DNA from: a virus
Taxonomy: Duplodnaviria; Caudoviricetes
IMG/VR virus record: IMGVR_UViG_3300038679_000051
Location: 224,001 to 288,000 of that record
DNA: 64,000 bases
Strand: one strand, 5' to 3'
The notes beneath the pieces were generated by a model, which saw only the letters and a program-made list of their open reading frames with translations, was not told where the DNA came from and did no database searches. This document shows, piece after piece, positions 15,676 to 42,821 of this stretch. Every line of letters starts with the position of its first letter. Position 1 is the stretch's first letter. The position numbers and the translations under genes are program-made.

Positions 15676-17010
15676 TCAATATTTATAAATAAATCGCAAT
15701 TTTTCTTTTCCCATAACTTTCTCATATTTTATTGAATTTGCGTATTCTTGTTCTTTCATGCCCATTTTAACAGCATGGTCCCACAATGTCTTCTTATGTA
15801 TTACATACCCATCTTTACCGACATACCAATAATCGGGTTTGACAGTTCCGTCTAATTGCCAATTTGAAGCTTTATAAATCGTTCCTGTATGATTGTGTGA
15901 TGTATCTGCGAATGTGATTAAATATTTTAAAGCTGGAAGTTCTGCTTCTATCATTTTCATGCATCTTGATATGAACCATGTAGCAAAATTCTTTTTTTGA
16001 TAGGCTGGATGAATGCAGAATCTTGATAATTCGCGTATTTCTGCCGTTTTTATACCAAGTTTATCAGCGGATTCTTTTCTAGTGATTGTAGAAAAAGCGC
16101 ATACGGCAATTAGATCATTACCTAATTTAACTCCATATCTAATGGAATTCTTACCAATCCTACCAAAGTAGTGATATTTTGCGACAAATTTCCTAGCTTC
16201 ATCATCAGTAATGTGAATGATTTCGACGTCGTCAAATGAGAAATCAATTGGGTTCCAGCCTGATCCAGTCCAATATTTAATCAAATCGACGATCCTGTCC
16301 TTGCAATGAAATTCATGCTCCCAAATGTGTTTTAATTTTAGATGTGGGAAATAACGTTCAAGATATGTGGCTTTTGCTTGATCATTTATCTTCGCCTTAT
16401 CCTTTTTGTGCCAATACTCGCCTTGGCATTCTATGATGAGGTTGTGATCTGGTAAGATGCAATCATAAGTCCAGAACCCAATGATTTTTTCAATTTCATA
16501 TTTAATCTTCAAATCATCTAAAATTGAATATAAAATCAATTGTATTGATGATGGCTTTCCTAATTGGTCATTTGCTAAATATGCCATCTTTTCTTTTACA
16601 GTATCATATTTCCCGATCATCTTTTTCACATATGATTGATCTTGCCATAGTTCTTTCATTCGTCGTTGTATTTTGTTCGATCTCAATAATGATGCTTCTC
16701 TAAAAGATCTCCCTTTAATGTTATATTGTTTAAAAGACTTGTTAATCGTTGCGATGGATACTCCGGCTTTTTTGGCTAATTCAGGTTTTGACATCCTTTT
16801 GTCATAATAATTAATTTTAAACCATTCTTCGGTTAAGAAATCAGGTAATCTTGGTTTGATTGGAATGCCAAATTTTTTTAATCTTCTATAAAGAAATTGA
16901 TCGTTGACGTTAAACTTTTTGACTATTTCTGAATATGGTGTCGTAGCATATAACTTTTCAAGACCTTCTTTCGTGTCAAATTCTGGTCCCATTATTTTGA
17001 AAAATTTCAT
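15676..17010 (-). CDS. HTH repeats + Vsr/DUF559-like endonuclease + Mom-like GNAT DNA-modification domain fusion
   Basis: TYDCILPDHNLIIECQGEYWH...DQAK nuclease motif; KYHY...ELSRFCIHP...WFISR...LITFAD..H.GTIYKASNW Mom-family motifs. Confidence 0.8.
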   Translation of the reverse strand: MKFFKIMGPEFDTKEGLEKLYATTPYSEIVKKFNVNDQFLYRRLKKFGIPIKPRLPDFLTEEWFKINYYDKRMSKPELAKKAGVSIATINKSFKQYNIKGRSFREASLLRSNKIQRRMKELWQDQSYVKKMIGKYDTVKEKMAYLANDQLGKPSSIQLILYSILDDLKIKYEIEKIIGFWTYDCILPDHNLIIECQGEYWHKKDKAKINDQAKATYLERYFPHLKLKHIWEHEFHCKDRIVDLIKYWTGSGWNPIDFSFDDVEIIHITDDEARKFVAKYHYFGRIGKNSIRYGVKLGNDLIAVCAFSTITRKESADKLGIKTAEIRELSRFCIHPAYQKKNFATWFISRCMKMIEAELPALKYLITFADTSHNHTGTIYKASNWQLDGTVKPDYWYVGKDGYVIHKKTLWDHAVKMGMKEQEYANSIKYEKVMGKEKLRFIYKY

Positions 17011-24736: not shown

Positions 24737-27610
24737 ATGCCAGTTTACCTCTCTCCGGGCGTATTTCCACGTGAAATCGATCTGAGCGTAATCCCGACTG
24801 CAGTTGGTCCGTTACGCCCAGCGTTTATTGGGACCGCAAAGAAAGGTCCAATGAATGCTCCAACATATGTGACTACGTCACAACAATTTATTGATACGTT
24901 CGGGACGCCATTCCCAGAATCGTTCATGGGGTATGCCGTCTTGGCCTACATGGAAGAGGGTAATCAGGCATACATCCTTCGTGCTGGCGTGGAATGTGAA
25001 GAAGGCCAGGTAGAAGAATTGGCCGACATTTGCATAGATACGAGCGGTGCCAATGGACATGGTTGGGGTCGAATACCAGTATTTACTGGCATTGATTATG
25101 GTAAAATTCGTCTGCGCAGCGTTTCAACTACTGAACCATTGGCATTCCACAGCGCGGCCATAACTGACATTTATTTTAGTGATATGGATGTAACGGTTCC
25201 TACTGCAGCGACTTTGTCATTTGTCGGCGGTGGTTTGTCGGATGCATATGCTGGCGCAATCGATGATTCTTATTTGCTTTTGATCACATCCGCACCAACG
25301 ACTGGTGCGATGATAGCCGGTGCAACATATGAAGTCATACGCAACAGCGATGGCGTGATCATTGCATCTGGCATGTTGTCTGAATCGGTCGTTGGGCAAT
25401 CAGATCCAATTACGTTAGTTGATGGCATGATTTGCAGCATAATCGTTACGTCTGGTGAATTGGACGTACAAGACAGCTTTTCTTTTAATGCCCGACCCGA
25501 CAATAGAAGTTTTGGATTTGCGGTTGATCTCTCACAATCACCGACGGTCAACATCCACAGTTTTAATGATGGCGAATCATTCACTGATGCCGATACGTTC
25601 GTCACTCGTTTCAATGCCATAATCGGCGGTTCTGAGGATTATAAAGCCGTTCATGAAGATGAAATCATTTACATTCGTTCTGACGTTGCGGGTGTCAACA
25701 TTCAAATGCAACATTCTGAAGCTTGGGCTTTGGAAGTTGGTCGCAGTTTGTATGCTTATGACATCCCACGATCATTCTTGATTTCTACTGATGCTGGTCC
25801 ATTCAACATCACTGCCAACAACAACCGAATCAAAATGACGGTAGTGGATGGCGAGCCGGTTCAAGCCACTACGGATTTAGAATTCTCAATCCCAATTGGT
25901 TTGAATTTGACGACCGCACAAGTAGCAGCTGGAATTCAGCCAGGCGGCATCAAGAATGGTTCAAGATTTTTCAATGCATACCCATTGGAAATATCAACTG
26001 GCGTCTATTACGTGGTGATTGAGACGGCAGTAGATCATTGTTATGGGGTATTGAAATTGCAAGCCAATCTGAGCAACGTTCGGACGTTGCGATTTGCTGA
26101 AGAATTGGAAATTCAATATCCATACTATCGGAATTTCCGGACTTATGGTGATAGTCGAGCCATGTTGCCGACGACTGGCGTCATTACGCCATCCGTGCCG
26201 CTCTCATGTGAAATCGACCCATTGTCCGATGATTGTGCACTTGATAGTGCATATTTTGCAGGCATTGTCGGCTGGTTTGTGGCGAAATCCCCCGGCACCT
26301 GGATCGACAGCTATACTCTTGATTTGACGCAGCGACTGACCGGAACCACCAGTGGTGGTTCCGTACAACAAGCTGGACATTTTGACATAACATTGCGTGA
26401 TTTGTCTGGCGTGACCGTTGATCGCGTTGAAGACGTTACATTTGATCCGCGTGATTCACGTTTCGTCGGAAACGTCATCAATGCAGGGTCTACGCTCGGC
26501 GGATTCAATGGCAATGCCTTCATCCAATGGGAATCTCGTCCGTCATTTTTGGCAAACGATCCGCTCGATCCAACGACGTTCGTGGTGCGCGTACCAAGCC
26601 CAGTCAATCGTGGTGCGTTCATTGATGCGGCCAATGGCATACCGACCGATCCAGCTTATTCTAGTGAATTGGATCGCGTGTTCATCGGCAATCCAGCCAA
26701 GGAAAGCGGCATTTATGCCTTCCAGAACCCAGAAGTATTCGACATCAATCTGTTGTTGGTGCCTGGTGCGTCATCTGGTGCGGTCATTGGTCAGATGTTG
26801 CAATTCTGTGAAGCACGTGGTGATGTGCTTTCGATCATTGATCCGCCTTTCGGATTGCGCCCACAACAGGTCGTCGATTGGCACAACGGCATGTTGTTCG
26901 CTGATCTACAGAACAGCATTAATAGTTCGTATGGTGCATTGTATTGGTCCTGGTTGCGGATCTTTGATCAATACAACGGCGGGGACATTTACATACCACC
27001 TAGCGGCCACGTCAGTTCAGTCTTCGCTCGTACGGCTCGTGTAGCGGAACAATGGTTTGCACCCGCTGGTCTTAATCGCGGTCATTTGCTCACGCCGACG
27101 GCAGTTGAATTCAATCCGACGATGGGTGAACGCGATTTGCTCTACGGTTCAGGAAACGCCGTCAACCCAATCGTCAATTTCGTGCAAGACGGCATCACGA
27201 TTTGGGGTCAACGGACGCTTCAACGCCGTCAGAGTGCGTTGGATCGCGTAAACGTCCGAATGTTGTTGATTTACATCAAGAAGAATTTGTCGAGAGCGTT
27301 ACGACAGTTCATCTTTGAGCCGAACGATAGAATTCTCTGGGCACAAGTCCGATCGGTCGTCAATCCATTCTTGGCCGACATTCAGGCACGGCGTGGTTTG
27401 CAAGCGTTCAAAGTGGTGTGCGACGAGACCAACAATACGCCTGAACGGATCGATCGCAATGAGTTGTGGATATCAGTCTTCCTCAAACCCACAAGAGCGG
27501 TGGAATTTATCGTGCTCAACCTTGTCATTCTCAGAACCGAGGCGAGCTTTTCGAGTGAAGAAGTCCTCCAAGCAGGCGGTGTAGTAACGCAACAACCAGC
27601 GTCTGTATAA
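24737..27610 (+). CDS. tail sheath protein, gp18-like
   Basis: YLSPGVFPREID, FIGTAKKGP, YGALYWSW, WFAPAGLNRG, VNPI...GITIWGQRTL..RVNVRML, FIFEPND. Confidence 0.97.
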   Translation: MPVYLSPGVFPREIDLSVIPTAVGPLRPAFIGTAKKGPMNAPTYVTTSQQFIDTFGTPFPESFMGYAVLAYMEEGNQAYILRAGVECEEGQVEELADICIDTSGANGHGWGRIPVFTGIDYGKIRLRSVSTTEPLAFHSAAITDIYFSDMDVTVPTAATLSFVGGGLSDAYAGAIDDSYLLLITSAPTTGAMIAGATYEVIRNSDGVIIASGMLSESVVGQSDPITLVDGMICSIIVTSGELDVQDSFSFNARPDNRSFGFAVDLSQSPTVNIHSFNDGESFTDADTFVTRFNAIIGGSEDYKAVHEDEIIYIRSDVAGVNIQMQHSEAWALEVGRSLYAYDIPRSFLISTDAGPFNITANNNRIKMTVVDGEPVQATTDLEFSIPIGLNLTTAQVAAGIQPGGIKNGSRFFNAYPLEISTGVYYVVIETAVDHCYGVLKLQANLSNVRTLRFAEELEIQYPYYRNFRTYGDSRAMLPTTGVITPSVPLSCEIDPLSDDCALDSAYFAGIVGWFVAKSPGTWIDSYTLDLTQRLTGTTSGGSVQQAGHFDITLRDLSGVTVDRVEDVTFDPRDSRFVGNVINAGSTLGGFNGNAFIQWESRPSFLANDPLDPTTFVVRVPSPVNRGAFIDAANGIPTDPAYSSELDRVFIGNPAKESGIYAFQNPEVFDINLLLVPGASSGAVIGQMLQFCEARGDVLSIIDPPFGLRPQQVVDWHNGMLFADLQNSINSSYGALYWSWLRIFDQYNGGDIYIPPSGHVSSVFARTARVAEQWFAPAGLNRGHLLTPTAVEFNPTMGERDLLYGSGNAVNPIVNFVQDGITIWGQRTLQRRQSALDRVNVRMLLIYIKKNLSRALRQFIFEPNDRILWAQVRSVVNPFLADIQARRGLQAFKVVCDETNNTPERIDRNELWISVFLKPTRAVEFIVLNLVILRTEASFSSEEVLQAGGVVTQQPASV

Positions 27611-27700: not shown

Positions 27701-28141
27701 ATGAAATTGAAGATGCTTTACGAAAATCTAAAGAAAGAGTATGATAAAGATAAACACGAAAATTTAGAGGCCATTGCAGAAATAGCAGGTGCATATATCA
27801 TTAAAAAAGACCGAGACGAATTTTATTCAAATAATCCGAGAGCATGGATGACTGATGATCCAAATTTAAAAGACGAGCGTGGTAATATCATAGCAAAATG
27901 GTATTTGGTGGATTTGGGTGAATCTGGTCCAAGACCAGAACCAGAGGCATGGTGGGCACACGAGAAATATCGATTGGGCGATCCACACAGGAAAAATGAC
28001 TTCTACATCAAATCATTGCAAGTTAATCCCCCTGATCCAATATATGACCGGGGACTTGGCGGATTTCAATTTTATCCTAAAGATTTCTGGAAACAAGAAG
28101 GAATAAAATTTGGATTTGGGAACGATACAATCAGTTTCTAA
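27701..28141 (+). CDS. hypothetical protein
   Basis: AGGAG RBS; begins MKLKMLYE. Confidence 0.65.
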   Translation: MKLKMLYENLKKEYDKDKHENLEAIAEIAGAYIIKKDRDEFYSNNPRAWMTDDPNLKDERGNIIAKWYLVDLGESGPRPEPEAWWAHEKYRLGDPHRKNDFYIKSLQVNPPDPIYDRGLGGFQFYPKDFWKQEGIKFGFGNDTISF

Positions 28142-28215
28142 GAGACGGCACATCCAACCACACAACCACATAAACAACAAAACATTTACGAGCTTGTGTG
28201 AGGTATTTAAATGAT

Positions 28216-28291
28216 GCGTGTGAAGCATAGTGATCGATGCGCCTGACTACCAGTTGGGAGAGGGGAGTGTAATTCTCGCCCACACGCTCCA
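28216..28291 (+). tRNA. atypical tRNA-Gly (anticodon ACC)
   Basis: acceptor GCGTGTG/CACACGC, U73, encoded CCA, D-stem GCAT/ATGC, anticodon arm CCTGA-CTACCAG-TTGGG; T-loop TGTAATT, bulged T-stem, A8 and no D-loop GG are non-canonical. Confidence 0.75.
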
Positions 28292-28299
28292 AAACGTCA

Positions 28300-28485
28300 T
28301 TTTGTGCAGCCTACTTGGTACGGAAGACCAAGTAAAAGCGCGGATAACAATTCCTAAGGGCGAAACAGTGAACAGTGCAGGCCCGCGACGAAGGAAAGTC
28401 GGCAACTAAACCCCTTCACCCGGTGGGCAGGAACATTTACCGTAAGTCAAACCATTGCGGACTTGTTGAAACCGGGTAAATTTTT
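28300..28485 (+). ncRNA. candidate structured RNA / leader of unknown class
   Basis: hairpins TACTTGGT/ACCAAGTA, GGGC/GCCC, CGAC/GTCG, AAGTC/GACTT and alternative pairings of 28471-28481. Confidence 0.3.
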
Positions 28486-28500
28486 AAATAGGGGTGCAAA

Positions 28501-30990: not shown

Positions 30991-31076
30991 ATGGTATTTT
31001 TTGTTCGTATTTTAATGATTTTTCGTCATTACAATTTCCGTCAAAGATATTACAGACCAGAATGGAGGATTTAAAC

Positions 31077-31601
31077 ATGCCAGGATTCACGATTCAGGGT
31101 GGTGAAAACGATGGTGGCCAAATAGTCAGCAATACGGTTGAAACCCGTAGAAATCACCGTTGGCGATGGACGTCAATGGGTAATGCCGTCCAGCCGGACG
31201 TTCTGATTTTGTTGCAGAAATGTCAGCGTCCGAAATTTACTAACGCTGAACCCGAATTGCATCACAATCAAGAAGTAGCCTATTTCATCGGCAAACAAAC
31301 ATGGGATCCGATTGAGATGGCATTCTACGATGCCGAACAACAACCAGATTGTTCAAGAGAAATCTGGAAATGGTTGAAGATTGGTAATTTACTCGATCAA
31401 GCAAACGTCAGCATACCGAAAACGTATAAGAAACGTGGACAGTTGGATATGGTGGATGGTAAAGGCAGCGAAACCGAAACGTGGTTCGTCCATGGTGCAT
31501 GGCCGAAAGAAGTCAGTTATTCTGAGAACGATTATACGAATACTGAAATTGCACTAATCACGGTAAGTCTGCGCTATGATCGTGCAGAAAAAACGAAATA
31601 A
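31077..31601 (+). CDS. tail tube protein, gp19-like
   Basis: RNHRWRW...CQRPK...VAYFIGKQTWDPIEMAFYD...WFVHGAWP...ITVSLRYD; GGAGG RBS. Confidence 0.9.
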   Translation: MPGFTIQGGENDGGQIVSNTVETRRNHRWRWTSMGNAVQPDVLILLQKCQRPKFTNAEPELHHNQEVAYFIGKQTWDPIEMAFYDAEQQPDCSREIWKWLKIGNLLDQANVSIPKTYKKRGQLDMVDGKGSETETWFVHGAWPKEVSYSENDYTNTEIALITVSLRYDRAEKTK

Positions 31602-31647: not shown

Positions 31648-33435
31648 ATGATCGATTGGAATAAAACTAAACAAAAATTTGGATTGACTGAATCTATCGT
31701 AACCAGTAAATCACTGGTCGTAGTAGTATGTGATGAATGTAAATCAGAACGAGTCATAAAATATGTTGGACATAAAACCATCATCAAAGCCCATGGTAAT
31801 TCATTGTGTTCGTCGTGTCGTAGTAAAAGCATAAGAGTGATTCACGCTGAGGCATTTACTAAATCAGATGTGAAACGAGCGGAGACGTTGTCTAGAACAT
31901 ATAAAAAGAAATGGCAGGATAAGAAATATAGGAAGACACAACATGAAATAAGGAATAATGATTATCGTTCTAAGATCAGTAATGCATCTAAACAATGTTG
32001 GCAAAATGATGATTATAGACATAAAGTTGTCCATGGAATTAATGAGAAATGGAATGATCAAGAATACCACCAAAAATTTATTGAAATAATGAACAGCGAT
32101 GAAGTAAAAAAGAAATTGATGGACAATTGGAAGAATCATAAATATCGTGATAAAGTTCTTGCTATATGGGATGATGAGGATGTTGTGAAAGAATTTGCAA
32201 AACGGATGAGTTTACATAGCAAACGAATGTGGTCCGATCCAGAATTGAGATCGAAGATGATTGCTTCACTGAAGAAGCGATGGGAGAGTCTAGAATTAAG
32301 AGAACATGCTTCAAACGTCAATAAAGAGATCTTTTCCACGCCAGAGATGAGAATAAAATTATCGAAGAATGCACAAGATAAGGCAGCTGATCCAGAATGG
32401 CATAAGAACGTATCGGATGGCGTGAAGAGAGCATTTGCCTCAGATCCAGATATGAAACAAAAAATGTCTAGTCGATCAAAGAAATTATGGCAGAATGAGG
32501 ATTATAGAGAGAAGATGGCTGTCGTACAAGCAAATCACCCAGTCATAAGTTCATTGGCACGTAAGTTTTATGCAATGTTGACGCAAATGAATATAAAATA
32601 TGTTGAGGAAGGTCCCGAAACAAAATTTGGTCCATGGACGTTTGATTGTCTAATACCGAAGCAAGGTAATATGCAAAAACATTTATTGGTTGAAGTTCAT
32701 GGTGAATATCCACATTCAAGAGAGGATACGAAAATAAGAGATGCAGCAAAGGCGACATATGCGAATAGATATTTGCTTGATTATGAATTAAAAGTCGTGT
32801 GGGAGCAATGGTTTCTATTTAGAAATAAAGTAGAGGATATGGTTAGAGAATGGATTGGGATTAAAGAGAATACGACGTTGGTTGATTTCTCACTGAATGA
32901 CGTTAAAACTATAGAATCATCTTACAAGGAATGTCTTGATTTTCTTTCTCGACATCATTATCTTTATACTTGTCCACGAGGATCAACATATTATAAGGCA
33001 GTCATTAACGATGAGATTGTGGCAGTTTGTTTATATAGTCCATTAATAAGACAAAACATTGGCATTAAAAATTGTCTTGAATTATCGCGTTTCTGCGTCC
33101 ATCCATCATACCAAAAGAAAAATTTTGCCTCTTGGTTAATTTCGAGGACTAATAGGTTATTGAAGATGGATAAACCGGAGACGGAAACAATAATAACATA
33201 TGCAGATTCTACAGTCGGTCACGTTGGTACGATTTATAAGGCGGCTAATTTTAAATTAGATCATATAGTTGAGCCTGATTATTGGTATGTTGATAAAGAC
33301 GGTTATGTCGTACATAAACGGACATTATATGCTCGTGCCTGTAAAATGAGTCAGAAGGAACGTGATTATGCAGAGAACCATGGTTATAAAAAAGTCTGGG
33401 GTGGTGAAAAACGACGTTATTCAATTAATTTGTGA
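31648..33435 (+). CDS. Zn finger + helical repeats + Vsr/DUF559-like endonuclease + Mom-like GNAT fusion
   Basis: CDEC..CSSC; repeated W.D..YR.K units; TFDCLIP...VEVHGEYPH...DAAK; RHHY...ELSRFCVHP...IITYAD..GHVGTIYKAANF. Confidence 0.8.
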   Translation: MIDWNKTKQKFGLTESIVTSKSLVVVVCDECKSERVIKYVGHKTIIKAHGNSLCSSCRSKSIRVIHAEAFTKSDVKRAETLSRTYKKKWQDKKYRKTQHEIRNNDYRSKISNASKQCWQNDDYRHKVVHGINEKWNDQEYHQKFIEIMNSDEVKKKLMDNWKNHKYRDKVLAIWDDEDVVKEFAKRMSLHSKRMWSDPELRSKMIASLKKRWESLELREHASNVNKEIFSTPEMRIKLSKNAQDKAADPEWHKNVSDGVKRAFASDPDMKQKMSSRSKKLWQNEDYREKMAVVQANHPVISSLARKFYAMLTQMNIKYVEEGPETKFGPWTFDCLIPKQGNMQKHLLVEVHGEYPHSREDTKIRDAAKATYANRYLLDYELKVVWEQWFLFRNKVEDMVREWIGIKENTTLVDFSLNDVKTIESSYKECLDFLSRHHYLYTCPRGSTYYKAVINDEIVAVCLYSPLIRQNIGIKNCLELSRFCVHPSYQKKNFASWLISRTNRLLKMDKPETETIITYADSTVGHVGTIYKAANFKLDHIVEPDYWYVDKDGYVVHKRTLYARACKMSQKERDYAENHGYKKVWGGEKRRYSINL

Positions 33436-37882: not shown

Positions 37883-40213
37883 ATGGCCATTAAATTCTAT
37901 TGTGTAGATGATTCATTACCAAAGAGAAATAGAAGGGGCAATGTCGTATTATTGTCTGACGAGGCAGTGGCTGCGATCATATGTGAATTGTGTGGTGGCA
38001 CTGGTGGCGGTGGCGGGTCGCAGGGACCACAGGGAACGCAGGGCATTAATGGCGTACAAGGTGAAACTGGCTCCCAAGGTCCACAGGGTTCCGGTGCTGG
38101 TTCACAAGGTCCACAGGGCATTCAAGGCCCACAAGGTTTTGGTACACAGGGCGTAAGCGGACCACAAGGTGATCAGGGCATCCAAGGCCCACAAGGTTCT
38201 GGCACACAGGGCGTAAGCGGATCACAAGGCGATGATGGTGCTCAGGGCATTCAGGGTCCACAAGGCTCAGGCGAGGGTGGCACAGGACCACAGGGTCCAC
38301 AAGGCGTTCAAGGCCCACAAGCAGTGGCAAGCGCTGGTGATTCTTGTGGCGTTTATCATTCTAAATCAGTGAACATACCAAACAATGCAGTTACGTATGT
38401 TGACTGGGATTCAGAAGACCATGATGCCAATGACATGCATGATTTGGTCAATCCATCTAGGATAACAATTAAGCATGATGGGTTGTATCATATAATCAAT
38501 AGGATCAAGTTTGATGCAGATGCTAATGGTTTTAGATATGCTGAGATTATATTAAATCGTACGACCGTATTAGCTCGTACAGAAGATATAAATCCATCGG
38601 ACATAGAAGGCACTTATTTAGAAGTGGATTCTGGCGTCATATCATTGTCGCTAGATGATTATGTTGAAGTCAGGGTTTATCAAAGTTCTGGCGGTGCATT
38701 GGGTGTTATGAGTGGCAATGTCGTTGATGGTTATTTCTCGGTGACGGAAATGTTGGGTGTTGGACCACAAGGATCGCAGGGTAGTGGTACTCAAGGCCCG
38801 CAGGGCGTTCAGGGTCCGCAGGGCGTTCAGGGTCCGCAGGGCGTTCAGGGTCCACAAAATACGATAGATCCAGGCGATTCTTGTGGCGTTTATCGTTCAG
38901 CATTAATAAGCACATTGCATAATACGATCACATATGTTGATTGGGATTCAGAAGATCATGATACCAATGACATGCATGATTTGGTCAATCCATCTAGGAT
39001 CACAATTAAACGTGATGGATTATATCACATAACTAATAGAATTAAATTCGCACCAAACACGAATGGTTTTAGATATGCTGAGATTATATTAAATCGTACG
39101 ACCGTATTAGCTCGCACGGAAGACATAAATCCATCGGACATAGAAGATTCTTATTTAGAAGTTGATTCTGGCGTCATATCATTGTCGCTAGATGATTATG
39201 TTGAAGTCAGGATTTATCAAAGTTCTGGCGGTGCATTGGATGCCGCAGGGAGTAATGTCGTTGATGGTTATTTCTCGGTGACGGAAATGTTGGGTGTCGG
39301 ACCACAAGGCCCACAGTGTTCAGGTGGTGGTGTGACTGGTCCACAAGGACCACAGGGTCCAGCCGGTGTCCAATCCACATACACAAATGCCAACCCATCC
39401 GTCATTGAGGTTGGTGGGATTGATGTCGGTACGACATTTTCTAACACCACTTTCGAAGATTTTATGGACATGTTACTTTACCCAGAATTATTCCCTACTC
39501 TAACTGCACCATCTTCTACTTTTACTTCAACAATTACTGGTTATAGAGAAATTGGTGAGGTGATTGCGACCATAACGCTTGCTTCAACATTTAACCGTGG
39601 TAGCATCAATCCCCAATATGAAAGCACTAGTCCCTATCGGAGTGGTGAGGCTAATTCTCATCAGTATCAATATAATAGTGCTGATATCAAAACCAATTTA
39701 GATACGTCTTTGAACATTATTAATCATTTGGTTGTGTCGGGTGCTCAAACATGGCGTGGACGTGTGTCGTATGATGCGGGCGTCCAGCCAAAGGGCAGTA
39801 AGGGGACGAATTATAATTCACCATTAAGTGCAGGTTCGACTTCTTATATAAATCGCATTATCACGGGTGTCTATCCCTATTTTGCGACAACTAGTTTAAT
39901 CACTGTGCTAACGAAACAGACATTGGCTGCCATGAATAGTTCATATGTACAGACTGATATGGTTGCTGAATCTGGTTCAGATAAACAGACGGTTGAATTT
40001 CCGGACGCTTGGAGTGCAATAACTGGCATTCAATTTTATAATACTGTTAGTAGTACCTGGGAATGGATCAATGGTAGTAAAGCTAATAGTCTGATTACTT
40101 TTACAGTAACTGCAACCACTGAGACGATACAGGGCAATGTCATCGACTATCAAAAATTTACTCATAATGGTAGTTTGATTGGTGCTCGACAATTGAGATG
40201 GTACACTACTTAA
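37883..40213 (+). CDS. collagen-like tail fibre/appendage protein with duplicated globular domain
   Basis: GPQ/GXQ triplets flanking two ~145-aa near-identical domains (C1q/TNF-like beta sandwich pattern). Confidence 0.85.
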
Positions 40214-40223
40214 GGGACTATAA

Positions 40224-42821
40224 ATGGGTCGAGAAAAGGGACTTGCAAGTTTTTCTTCTAATTTCGAGGGCCAAATGGCCGCTCCGATTGATGCGCGTAT
40301 GTTAGTAGAGACTAAGGCTGATCTTATTGTGGCTGCTACTTGGCTCGCGAATGATGGTGGTACTTATGCTTATGCTGGTATGATTGTAAGTGTGCATGGC
40401 GATACAACACCCGAAAACAATGGAGTGTATAGATTAAAAGCTCTTCCAGTTACTACTGAATCTAATTGGGAACTTCTGGGTGGGGGCAGTAGCGGTCCAC
40501 AGGGTCCACAAGGCATACAGGGGCCGCAAGGCTCAGGATATGGCAGTAGCGGTCCACAGGGTCCACAAGGCATACAGGGGCCGCAAGGCTCAGGATATGG
40601 CAGTAGCGGTCCACAGGGTCCACAAGGTGCTACTGGTGACCAAGGCGTTGCTGGTAGTCAGGGTAGTGTAGGTCCACAGGGTGGTGATGGCAGTCAGGGT
40701 TCAATTGGTGATCAAGGTGTTGCTGGTGCTCAAGGTCCACAGGGCGAAATAGGTTTTGCGGTAGGGAATTTGGCTTATTTTAGATTCGACAATGAAGTTA
40801 CCGATACTGGTATGGCTAGTGAAGGTGGGGCGTTTCGTTTTAATAATGCAAACACAACCCTTGTAACCAAAATATGGATCAATAATACAGATGCCTTCAC
40901 GACTGACGTTTCTGCGTGGTTGGCAACATGGGCTGAATCCACAAGCACAATCAAAGGTTATGTGAACATTAGAGGGAGTGCTTCCAATTTCTATATTTAT
41001 TCTGTGACTGGTGTTACCACCAAGGTGGGGTATTATGAGATTGACGTAATCCATATTGCCGATCAGGGCGGTGGACCACCAGTTGATGGTGTAGAATATC
41101 CCATATCTTTTAGCAGAACCGGGGACATAGGCATCCAAGGTGCTACTGGTCCTCAAGGTCCTGTAGGTGTTCAAGGTACTGCTGGTGCCCAAGGCGTTGT
41201 TGGTGCCCAGGGTGCTACTGGTGCACAAGGTCCTGTAGGCAGCCAAGGTGCTGCTGGTGCCCAAGGCGTTGCTGGTGCCCAGGGTGCTACTGGTGCACAA
41301 GGTAGCACTGGCATAGATGGTACTACTGGTCCCCAAGGTCCTGTAGGCAGCCAAGGTAGTACTGGTAGTCAGGGTGTTGCGGGTGCACAGGGCGTTGCTG
41401 GTGCTCAGGGCGTTGCTGGTGTTCAAGGTACTGCTGGTGCACAGGGTAGCACTGGCATAGATGGTACTACTGGTCCCCAAGGTCCTGTAGGCAGCCAAGG
41501 TGCTGCTGGTGCCCAAGGCGTTGCTGGTGCTCAAGGTTCTACTGGTGCCCAAGGTGTTTCCGGTGCTCAGGGTATAAATGGTGTCACTGGCCCACAAGGT
41601 CCACAGGGCGATCAAGGCCCGCAAAACGTTATTGGTGCTACTGGCCCACAAGGACCACAAGGCACTGGCACGCAGGGTCCACAAGGTGATGATGGTGCCC
41701 AAGGATCACAAGGCATAAATGGTGTTACTGGTCCACAAGGTCCACAAGGTGAGAAGGGTGATCCCGCTGGAACACCTGATTCATGTAAAACAATATTAGA
41801 ATCCGATTATCCATTAGCGAATGATGATGCAATTGCAATACCGTTTACTGACGAGGATCATGATACCGATTCGATGCATAGCAATATTGTCAATCCAAGT
41901 AGGATTACCATCAAAACGTCTGGTTATTACCATGTTCGTGGTGTACTTAAATTTGCGACGAATGCAATTGGCATACGATATGCTTATATCAGTAAAGATG
42001 GAATTAAATTGGCAGATGAAGTCAGAGATCTGAGTCCGTCTGGTTCTTATGTTTCTTATGTAGAGGTCGACCTAGGCGTAATTTCTCTTTCGACCAATGA
42101 ATATATCCAGATACATGGTTATCAAAACAGTGGCGATCCCTTAGGTGTTTTGATGGATGGTAGTTTTCTGTCTGTAACGAGTGCATCTGGTGCTAATGGT
42201 GATCAGGGACCAACTGGTCCGATAGGACCACAAGGTGTCATTGGTAGTCAAGGCGATGATGGTACACAGGGACCACAAGGCACTGGTACGCAGGGTCCAC
42301 AGGGCGATCAAGGCCCGCAAAACGTTATTGGTGCTACTGGCCCACAAGGACCACAAGGCACTGGTACGCAGGGTCCACAGGGTGATCAAGGCCCACAAAA
42401 TGTTATCGGTCCGCAAGGTTCACAGGGTCCACAGGGTGATCAGGGCATTGGTGCTACTGGCCCACAGGGACCGCAGGGTCCGATTTGTGCATCAGTACAA
42501 GCACAATCGACCACACCATTAAATCTTACGGCCGCCGATAGTGGCAAAATAATTACAAATGAAGGCATGACTGAATTATTAGTAGTAAATCTACCTACAG
42601 CGGAGGCAGATTTAATGTTCACATTCATAGTACAAGATTCAGACGGAATAAAGATAGTGGCCGGCGTAGACGATAGTACAAGGCTTGGTACAACCGTCAG
42701 TAAATTAGCCGGATATATTCAGAACGCTGTGATTGGATCAATAGTCCGATTGGTGTGTATAAATAATACTGAATGGTTCGCCGAGTATTGGGTAGGTACT
42801 TGGATAGTGGAGATTTCATAA
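40224..42821 (+). CDS. collagen-like tail fibre protein
   Basis: long GXY tracts (GAQ, GPQ, GST); third copy of the globular domain near 41780-42190; beta-sandwich C-terminus. Confidence 0.85.

Follow-up and report, generated by a model that had tools for sequence, protein, structure and literature searches.

A tRNA-Gly-like RNA linked to Mom genes in phages, and its probable role as a glycyl carrier

What purpose is served by a tRNA-Gly with an ACC anticodon and a non-canonical elbow in a phage? The question is raised by an RNA of 76 nucleotides (nt) encoded in a 64,000-nt stretch of IMG/VR virus record IMGVR_UViG_3300038679_000051 (Caudoviricetes); this whole stretch is called the window below. 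The RNA (28216-28291, + strand) belongs to a family of structured tRNA-Gly-like RNAs that are genetically linked to genes of the Mom family. It is probably a dedicated, non-proteogenic glycyl carrier for the Mom-family DNA-modifying enzymes of the phage and not a codon reader. The coordinates of its parts and of the neighbouring genes are given in Table 1.

The features listed in the initial annotation (acceptor pairs, U73, CCA, C35/C36, A8, a D loop without GG, the T loop TGTAATT and a bulged T stem) are all present at the site. The acceptor stem GCGTGTG/CACACGC is perfect (7 of 7 pairs). The D stem comprises 4 bp (GCAT/ATGC) and closes a loop, AGTGATCG, that lacks GG. The anticodon stem CCTGA/TTGGG has 5 bp, including two G-U pairs, and carries a 7-nt loop with U33; the variable region is AGAG. 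The identity set of glycyl-tRNA synthetase (GlyRS) is complete (G1:C72, C2:G71, G3:C70, U73, C35, C36). The RNA departs from the bases universal in elongator tRNAs by A8, by its D loop and by the TGT of its T loop. Its minimum free energy fold is a cloverleaf (-27.1 kcal/mol, z -1.82) in which 32:38 and 33:37 are also paired, so that the anticodon stem is extended. A minus-strand reading of the site was rejected: it gives a poorer cloverleaf, and its match to Plastid-ycf2 (24.2 bits vs a cut-off of 65.7) is noise.

Standard scanners may miss such an RNA, as had been anticipated. ARAGORN in its default mode calls no tRNA in the 64-kb window or in the 151-kb record. The site is reported only at -ps80, the most permissive setting used, among 77 mostly spurious calls in 151 kb. 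The Rfam tRNA model RF00005 gives 18.3 bits vs a gathering score of 29, and of 20 loci with a member of the family or with a related RNA linked to Mom, only 2 reach that cut-off. By scanner scores alone the site is near chance level; its reality is settled by homologues.

BLAST of the intergenic region and the surrounding 9 kb against the INPHARED phages gave no match. For the flanking orphan open reading frames (ORFs), of 146 and 91 amino acids (aa), IMG/VR and the protein collection contain only identical copies, and the identical contigs offer no variation. The tail sheath protein has hundreds of relatives at about 55-62% identity, the two closest being at 84% and 76%; 80 sheath-anchored loci from IMG/VR made up the starting sample. 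Within it, nhmmer with the intergenic region matched only the tRNA-like part, in three loci. A covariance model derived solely from the window sequence scored relatives in related phage loci at 59-60 bits (E about 1e-14), and it also recovered a shorter variant (locus L068) and the group L049/L052/L054. Exact-pattern scans built on the conserved D arm matched 91 stretches in JGI metagenomes and, in two scans of IMG/VR, 42 and 33. Among 185,579 bacterial species genomes only 2 matches were found, both in metagenome-assembled genomes. A six-sequence covariance model (R2), of which the window RNA is a training member (90.2 bits), confirmed 31 of the 42 stretches of the first IMG/VR scan, all 9 stretches new to the second, and 82 of 82 loci fetched from the genome and metagenome scans (83 hits, 48-85 bits). 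Removal of duplicates and canonical tRNAs left 92 distinct sequences, of which 91 are full-length; family counts given below rest on these 91. One locus, L149, holds two copies in tandem (569-644 and 650-725, 5 nt apart). The second is more diverged; its elbow looks canonical, the D loop containing GG and the T loop being TTCGATT.

All four stems of the cloverleaf covary. In the alignment fitted to the model (34 distinct rows), standard pairs fill 98.5% of the cells and double-sided changes occur in 17 of the 21 pairs (142 cells). All five anticodon-stem pairs covary, and acceptor pairs 4-6 do so freely. None of 500 shuffles equalled the observed covariation, and slid-partner controls were 35-51% paired. 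Since a fitted alignment leans towards its model, a structure-blind check was run. RNAalifold on a plain MAFFT alignment of 30 diverse members returned the same four-armed cloverleaf with 12 compensated pairs, the unpaired T-stem base being read as a 1x1 internal loop. Two readings of the T arm (28259-28280 in the window) can be made throughout the family: 5 bp with a bulged base, or six layers with a conserved 1x1 loop. The six-layer reading entails a conserved G.A (G.G in the window), a 3-nt variable region and an acceptor/T stack of 13 layers.

Covariation extends to the elbow. The D-loop base '18' covaries with T-loop base 55 (G18/U55 in 26 sequences, A18/G55 in 51, few exceptions), so the elbow is altered, not lost, in the family. 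A19 often goes with U56; the window RNA has the A18/G55 form together with U56. All of its 21 pairs and all family-invariant bases are intact. A lack of compensatory conservation among homologues, together with a lack of expression and aminoacylation, had been named in the initial annotation as the mark of a decayed pseudo-tRNA. On the sequence side such conservation is present, and the RNA is a real structured one, neither a chance fold nor a decaying pseudogene.

Glycine identity is kept within this fold. The determinants of bacterial GlyRS are G1C72, C2G71, C35, C36 and U73 (PMC10464925). Statistics free of scan bias are those on the acceptor, the discriminator, the variable region and the T arm, and those on the anticodon loop from the scan that does not require CC (33 matches). 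G1 C2 G3 are found in 91 of 91 homologues, C70 G71 C72 in 90 and U73 in 88. CC occupies 35-36 in all homologues, including 33 of the 33 matches of the CC-free scan. CCA at 35-37 is found in 90 of the 91, and A37 is kept in 32 of the 33 CC-free matches. The full identity set is present in 87 of 91, in agreement with the earlier assignment to the glycine type with an intact identity set and a non-canonical elbow. The 3' CCA is encoded in 57. Two further features are nearly constant: an unpaired base in the 3' strand of the T stem (89 of 91; A 80, G 6) and the last G of the variable region (90 of 91). The T loop starts with TGC in 44, TTC in 29 and TGT in 9 homologues, the window RNA being among the last.

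Decoding features are free. Position 33 in the 73 seven-base loops is U in 21 (29%), A in 25, G in 17 and C in 10. Loop length ranges from 5 to 8 nt (7 nt in 73, 8 nt in 16, shorter in 2), and 32:38 can pair in 63 of the 73 seven-base loops. Position 34 is U in 50, A in 33 and C in 8, never G. U33, base 34 and loop length are not kept; the rare ACC anticodon, on which weight had been placed, is therefore incidental. In this family the anticodon-like loop is not selected for codon reading. Also conserved, and unlike elongator tRNAs, are A8, the unpaired base of the T stem and the altered elbow. One variant of the family (L083:3851-3955; L084 has an identical copy) has a G discriminator and 32 extra nt inserted in the anticodon arm, and it cannot function in decoding.

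Members of the family are linked to Mom genes. An ORF with a Mom domain (PF25680) ends at the 5' side of the RNA, on the same strand, in 80 of the 89 distinct loci with at least 450 nt upstream, all of which were found through the RNA pattern alone. These genes include stand-alone Mom genes of 190-290 aa in high-GC phages. RNA-bearing sheath loci have the order sheath, nuclease-Mom, RNA: in all of them the sheath gene is followed by an ORF of 480-590 aa, whose stop codon is overlapped by the RNA or is no more than about 30 nt from it. That ORF ends in the Pfam Mom domain in 4 of the 5 tested, and the one in L068 matches only a Mom-domain hidden Markov model (HMM) built for this analysis from six sequences, which may miss distant Mom genes. 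In the 963 kb of sheath-anchored DNA, taken as a control, 8 of the 9 RNA matches outside the window adjoin Mom. The idea that the RNA is the target of a homing endonuclease was dropped, since some of the Mom genes followed by the RNA stand alone and have no nuclease domain. The stop codon of mom is the TAG at RNA positions 13-15, within the conserved GCATAG of the D arm, in 21 loci (e.g. L117, L099, L093, L111). The mom frame is open through the whole RNA in about 45 loci (e.g. L127, L124, L090). Excision of the RNA would leave the mom mRNA without a stop codon and may act as a built-in limit on Mom synthesis.

Among the nine loci without an upstream Mom gene, one has an upstream ORF for a DruA-family protein and another has one for a DNA methylase. 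In the former (L156), the RNA (510-585, - strand) lies at the 3' end of a DruA-family (PF14236) ORF (494-1633, - strand), a hint that DruA-like proteins may also use a glycyl-RNA. In the reverse sample of 80 Mom-anchored loci, 24 have a GCG...CGC-U tRNA-Gly-like gene within about 0.7 kb, and ARAGORN makes ten calls, nine of Gly type and one of Gln. Several of these tRNA-Gly-like genes are upstream of mom or on the opposite strand; many have canonical elbows and 8-nt loops. That they occur in either orientation favours an RNA gene acting in trans over an mRNA element acting purely in cis. In one relative a dual-specificity protein phosphatase gene (L013:10600-11121; PF22785, PF00782, others) directly follows the RNA.

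The decisive context, which goes beyond the initial annotation, is that the prototype of these enzymes, Mom of phage Mu, uses Gly-tRNAGly as donor. Glycine is transferred from it to the N6 of adenine in double-stranded DNA and an on-base rearrangement then gives N6-carbamoylmethyl-adenine (Silva et al., Nat Commun 2026, PMC13219725; preprint 10.1101/2023.03.24.534169). That Mom uses charged tRNA-Gly is a recent finding, and it was presented as scavenging from the host. Mu Mom accepts all three Escherichia coli tRNAGly isoacceptors and rejects Gly-tRNAAla; it discriminates the body of the tRNA (PMC13219725). Both Mu and the window phage have a Mom-family GNAT domain, and the Mu chemistry supplies a reason for a glycine carrier. 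Mu, however, encodes no tRNA and draws on host isoacceptors, whereas the window phage has a nuclease-like domain fused to Mom and its own tRNA-Gly-like gene. Mom-linked tRNA genes are not mentioned in the main texts of Silva et al. (PMC13219725).

A precedent for glycyl-tRNAs withdrawn from translation exists in staphylococci. The non-proteogenic (NP) tRNAGly NP1-NP3 of Staphylococcus aureus and S. epidermidis are altered in the D loop, and their T loop has TGC or TGT in place of TTC (Rietmeyer et al. 2021, PMC7826273). They bind EF-Tu and ribosomes poorly and are preferred by the GNAT-fold Fem transferases, while EF-Tu sequesters the proteogenic forms (PMC7826273). Such tRNAs are stated to be known only from staphylococci (PMC7826273). 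The TGC/TGT T loop is common to them and to the present family, the window RNA having TGT. The staphylococcal tRNAs are encoded by the host and retain U8 and an ordinary T stem; FmhB/FemA/FemB use them to build peptidoglycan bridges. The window RNA differs by A8 and an unpaired T-stem base and belongs to a family without conserved U33; its proposed user is a DNA-modifying Mom. The likeness is treated here as one of functional analogy, not of membership by descent.

A physical association of mom with a tRNA-Gly-like sequence has been on record since 2011. In the ssrA islands of Dehalococcoides, a conserved 76-bp tRNA-Gly-like 'pseudo-tRNA' with anticodon DCC is embedded in a mom homologue; no function was proposed (McMurdie et al. 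2011, PMC3146451). Compared by description, it resembles the window RNA in its 76-bp cloverleaf, its glycine type, its pseudo-tRNA label from a pipeline and its physical tie to a Mom homologue. The Dehalococcoides copy lies within the first 150 bp of mom in an integrative island of a bacterium, whereas the window RNA is free-standing in a large myophage and its subfamily is normally found at the mom 3' end. In the literature searched, no interpretation of such an RNA as a private glycyl carrier was found. Closer at hand, L049/L052/L054 carry a canonical tRNA-Gly(UCC) at the same place, called by ARAGORN and scoring 55.5 bits with the Rfam tRNA model. It shares with the window RNA the GCG...CGC-U acceptor identity, the D stem and the position after a nuclease-Mom gene; it keeps the D-loop GG and the TTCGATT T loop, whereas the window RNA has neither, nor a scanner call.

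The virus record comprises 151,476 bp (41% G+C, CheckV completeness 41%). Proteins identical to those of the record are also found on a 320-kb contig, and the phage may be a jumbo phage of more than 300 kb. The RNA sits in a 359-nt gap (28142-28500) without any ORF supported by databases; two listed ORFs of 52-59 aa overlap the gap. The record holds five Mom-like ORFs, two of them outside the window. The nearest full-length candidate user, the 595-aa nuclease-Mom fusion, matches the Mu Mom structure 8BV8 by phmmer, with equivalents of R111, S124, D149 and Y159 aligned (residue numbering assumes that chain index equals residue minus 9). S124 is Ala in the crystal and Ser in the fusion, and R151 aligns to Thr. 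In relatives, nuclease-Mom fusion genes flank the sheath gene on either or both sides (L011, L027, L032, L034, L043), which suggests that they are mobile, homing-endonuclease-like cassettes.

Table 1. Parts of the tRNA-Gly-like RNA and neighbouring genes in the window
Feature	Coordinates	Strand	Remarks
tRNA-Gly-like RNA, 76 nt	28216-28291	+	Cloverleaf, U73, encoded CCA; homologues and covariation; proposed non-proteogenic glycyl carrier
Acceptor stem, 5' strand	28216-28222	+	Pairs with 28281-28287; G1-C72, C2-G71, G3-C70 are GlyRS identity pairs
D arm, GCAT-AGTGATCG-ATGC	28225-28240	+	A8 A9 (28223-28224) just before; without G18G19
Anticodon-like arm	28242-28258	+	Loop CTACCAG 28247-28253; ACC 28249-28251; C35 C36 are GlyRS identity bases
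T arm, GGGAG-TGTAATT-CTC-G-CC	28263-28280	+	Unpaired G 28278; TGT T loop
Discriminator U73 and encoded CCA	28288-28291	+	U73 at 28288, CCA at 28289-28291; from the sequence
Nuclease-Mom fusion, 595 aa	31648-33435	+	Pfam Mom PF25680, 67.9 bits vs cut-off 27.1; nearest full-length candidate user
Nuclease-Mom fusion, 444 aa	15676-17010	-	Mom-domain HMM, E 5e-70; second candidate user
Mom-domain fragment, 96 aa	24349-24639	+	Mom-domain HMM, E 6e-34; just upstream of the tail sheath gene
Tail sheath gene	24737-27610	+	Upstream of the RNA
146-aa orphan ORF	27701-28141	+	Upstream; the RNA begins 75 nt past it
gp19-like tail tube gene	31062-31601	+	Downstream, after small + strand ORFs

The GC-rich stretch of 209 nt that separates the RNA from the next ORF (28292-28500) does not code for protein, is not conserved in relatives and has a fold no better than that of shuffles (z -1.28). 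The motif GGTATTTAAATG just upstream of the RNA was considered as a promoter and rejected, as it is not enriched in the window (13 found vs 10.5 expected). Four collagen-like ORFs (37883-42818 and beyond the window end) give 37-227 overlapping matches to G-X-Y triplet runs. A 96-nt tRNA-like sequence in a relative (L042:2112-2208), which ARAGORN calls tRNA-Ile(gat), has a long extra arm and is unrelated to Mom.

A glycine identity and an L fold that are kept, decoding features that drift, oddities in the T stem and elbow, and linkage to Mom fit an RNA that is glycylated for Mom and not for the ribosome. The RNA would be co-transcribed with the late structural genes (+ strand) and then processed to 76 nt, the encoded CCA forming its 3' end. 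Host GlyRS would charge it through G1-C72, C2-G71, G3-C70, U73, C35 and C36. The T stem and the elbow are where EF-Tu and the ribosome read a tRNA. Weak binding to both is predicted, since the T stem has an unpaired base, the elbow is altered and the anticodon loop is unconstrained. The features that may exclude the RNA from translation are an elbow of A18/G55 type with a TGT T loop, the unpaired T-stem base, A8 and an anticodon loop closed by 32:38. The nuclease-Mom fusions (31648-33435, 15676-17010 and two more in the record) would take its glycine to the N6 of adenine in phage DNA. There the N6-glycine would rearrange to N6-carbamoylmethyl-adenine and block restriction. Expression, processing, charging, exclusion from translation and use in trans by the Mom fusions of this phage are steps that we infer. 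The more specific proposal is advanced tentatively, as a possibility somewhat short of probable: that a free-standing, translation-orthogonal carrier with an A18/G55 elbow serves several nuclease-Mom fusions in trans, and that its 13-layer acceptor/T stack could exclude EF-Tu.

Several observations weigh against a glycyl carrier. A private carrier is not required in principle, since Mu Mom uses all three host isoacceptors, and a tRNA-Gly-like gene is close by in only about 30% of the Mom loci sampled. At pair 4:69, 86 of 91 homologues are pyrimidine:purine (U4:A69 in the window), the reverse of the preference for purine-4/pyrimidine-69 that has been measured for the GlyRS of Lactiplantibacillus plantarum (PMC10464925). 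The pattern scans fix the D-arm motif, and two of the three also fix CCA or CCAG, so that the conservation of those parts is biased. Where the mom frame runs open through the RNA, some of the conservation could be coding constraint. Adjacency to Mom holds for 90% of the family but not for the window copy, which stands free, 3.6 kb from the Mom fragment upstream and 3.3 kb from the Mom fusion downstream. The 146-aa ORF upstream of it has no similarity to Mom, and no Mom remnant was found upstream of the RNA in any frame. The window copy could therefore be what remains of a cassette otherwise lost. At the RNA, neither a sigma-70-like promoter nor an intrinsic terminator was found.

The last of these points but one can be put as a rival explanation: an ancestral cassette of nuclease-Mom and RNA behind the sheath gene lost Mom, and the RNA is an undecayed remnant without function here. 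The gene order of relatives, the unrelated 146-aa orphan ORF in the position of Mom and the 96-aa Mom fragment nearby all agree with such a history, and only identical copies of the window locus are available. A relic is nevertheless unlikely: no pair and no family-invariant base has decayed, at least four other Mom ORFs in the record could use the RNA in trans, and the related genes upstream of mom or on the opposite strand behave as separate genes. Rather improbable as well is a working translational tRNA-Gly(ACC), perhaps with A34 converted to inosine, that boosts the reading of GGT/GGC in late genes such as those of the collagen-like fibres. In favour of the suggested decoding of GGT, this is the commonest Gly codon (46% genome-wide, 48-75% in the collagen-like ORFs). 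The window copy itself has a complete cloverleaf with CCA, U33 and an anticodon loop of 7 nt, and one group of relatives has the canonical tRNA-Gly(UCC) at the same place. Decoding finds no support at the level of the family, where U33, loop length and base 34 are unconstrained and 32:38 is mostly pairable. The conserved A8, elbow and unpaired T-stem base, the low Rfam scores and the missing ARAGORN call speak against an elongator, and decoding leaves the tight linkage to Mom unexplained.

A role as decoy or spare against host defences that attack tRNA-Gly (toxins that read the acceptor stem, or GNAT toxins that acetylate Gly-tRNAGly) is highly improbable. The conserved parts, the acceptor end and C35/C36, are those read by such toxins as well as by GlyRS, and a toxSAS that selects tRNAGly by its acceptor stem has been described. 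A spare for translation, however, should keep its decoding features; no defence or anti-defence gene is consistently nearby, and the location at the Mom 3' end in 90% of loci is left unexplained. Nothing supports the anticodon-nuclease decoy that the initial annotation had considered. There is scarcely any likelihood in a tRNA-like mRNA element acting in cis (a processing site for RNase P/Z, a 3'-end stabilizer or a switch that removes the stop codon of mom) and carrying no amino acid. In relatives the RNA does overlap the mom stop or is traversed by the mom frame, and its excision would truncate the mom mRNA. Yet processing has no need of conserved C35, C36, U73 and an encoded CCA, Mom-linked relatives of the RNA occur upstream of mom and on the opposite strand, and the window RNA lies 75 nt past an unrelated ORF. 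Decoy and purely cis-acting roles explain less than a glycyl carrier does.

A widespread tRNA-Gly look-alike beside mom, with synthetase identity kept and decoding dropped, suggests that many phages bring their own glycyl donor, insulated from EF-Tu and the ribosome. If the proposed role as glycyl carrier is true, the window RNA would take non-proteogenic tRNAs beyond staphylococci for the first time and would be the first such tRNA reserved for DNA hypermodification. The concept of the non-proteogenic tRNA would then extend from one bacterial genus to phages and to DNA modification, and the 'pseudo-tRNA' of 2011 would be explained. The RNA would also provide a small, defined substrate for studying the recognition of tRNA by Mom, and it would draw attention to a class of RNA genes largely overlooked by ARAGORN and the Rfam tRNA model.

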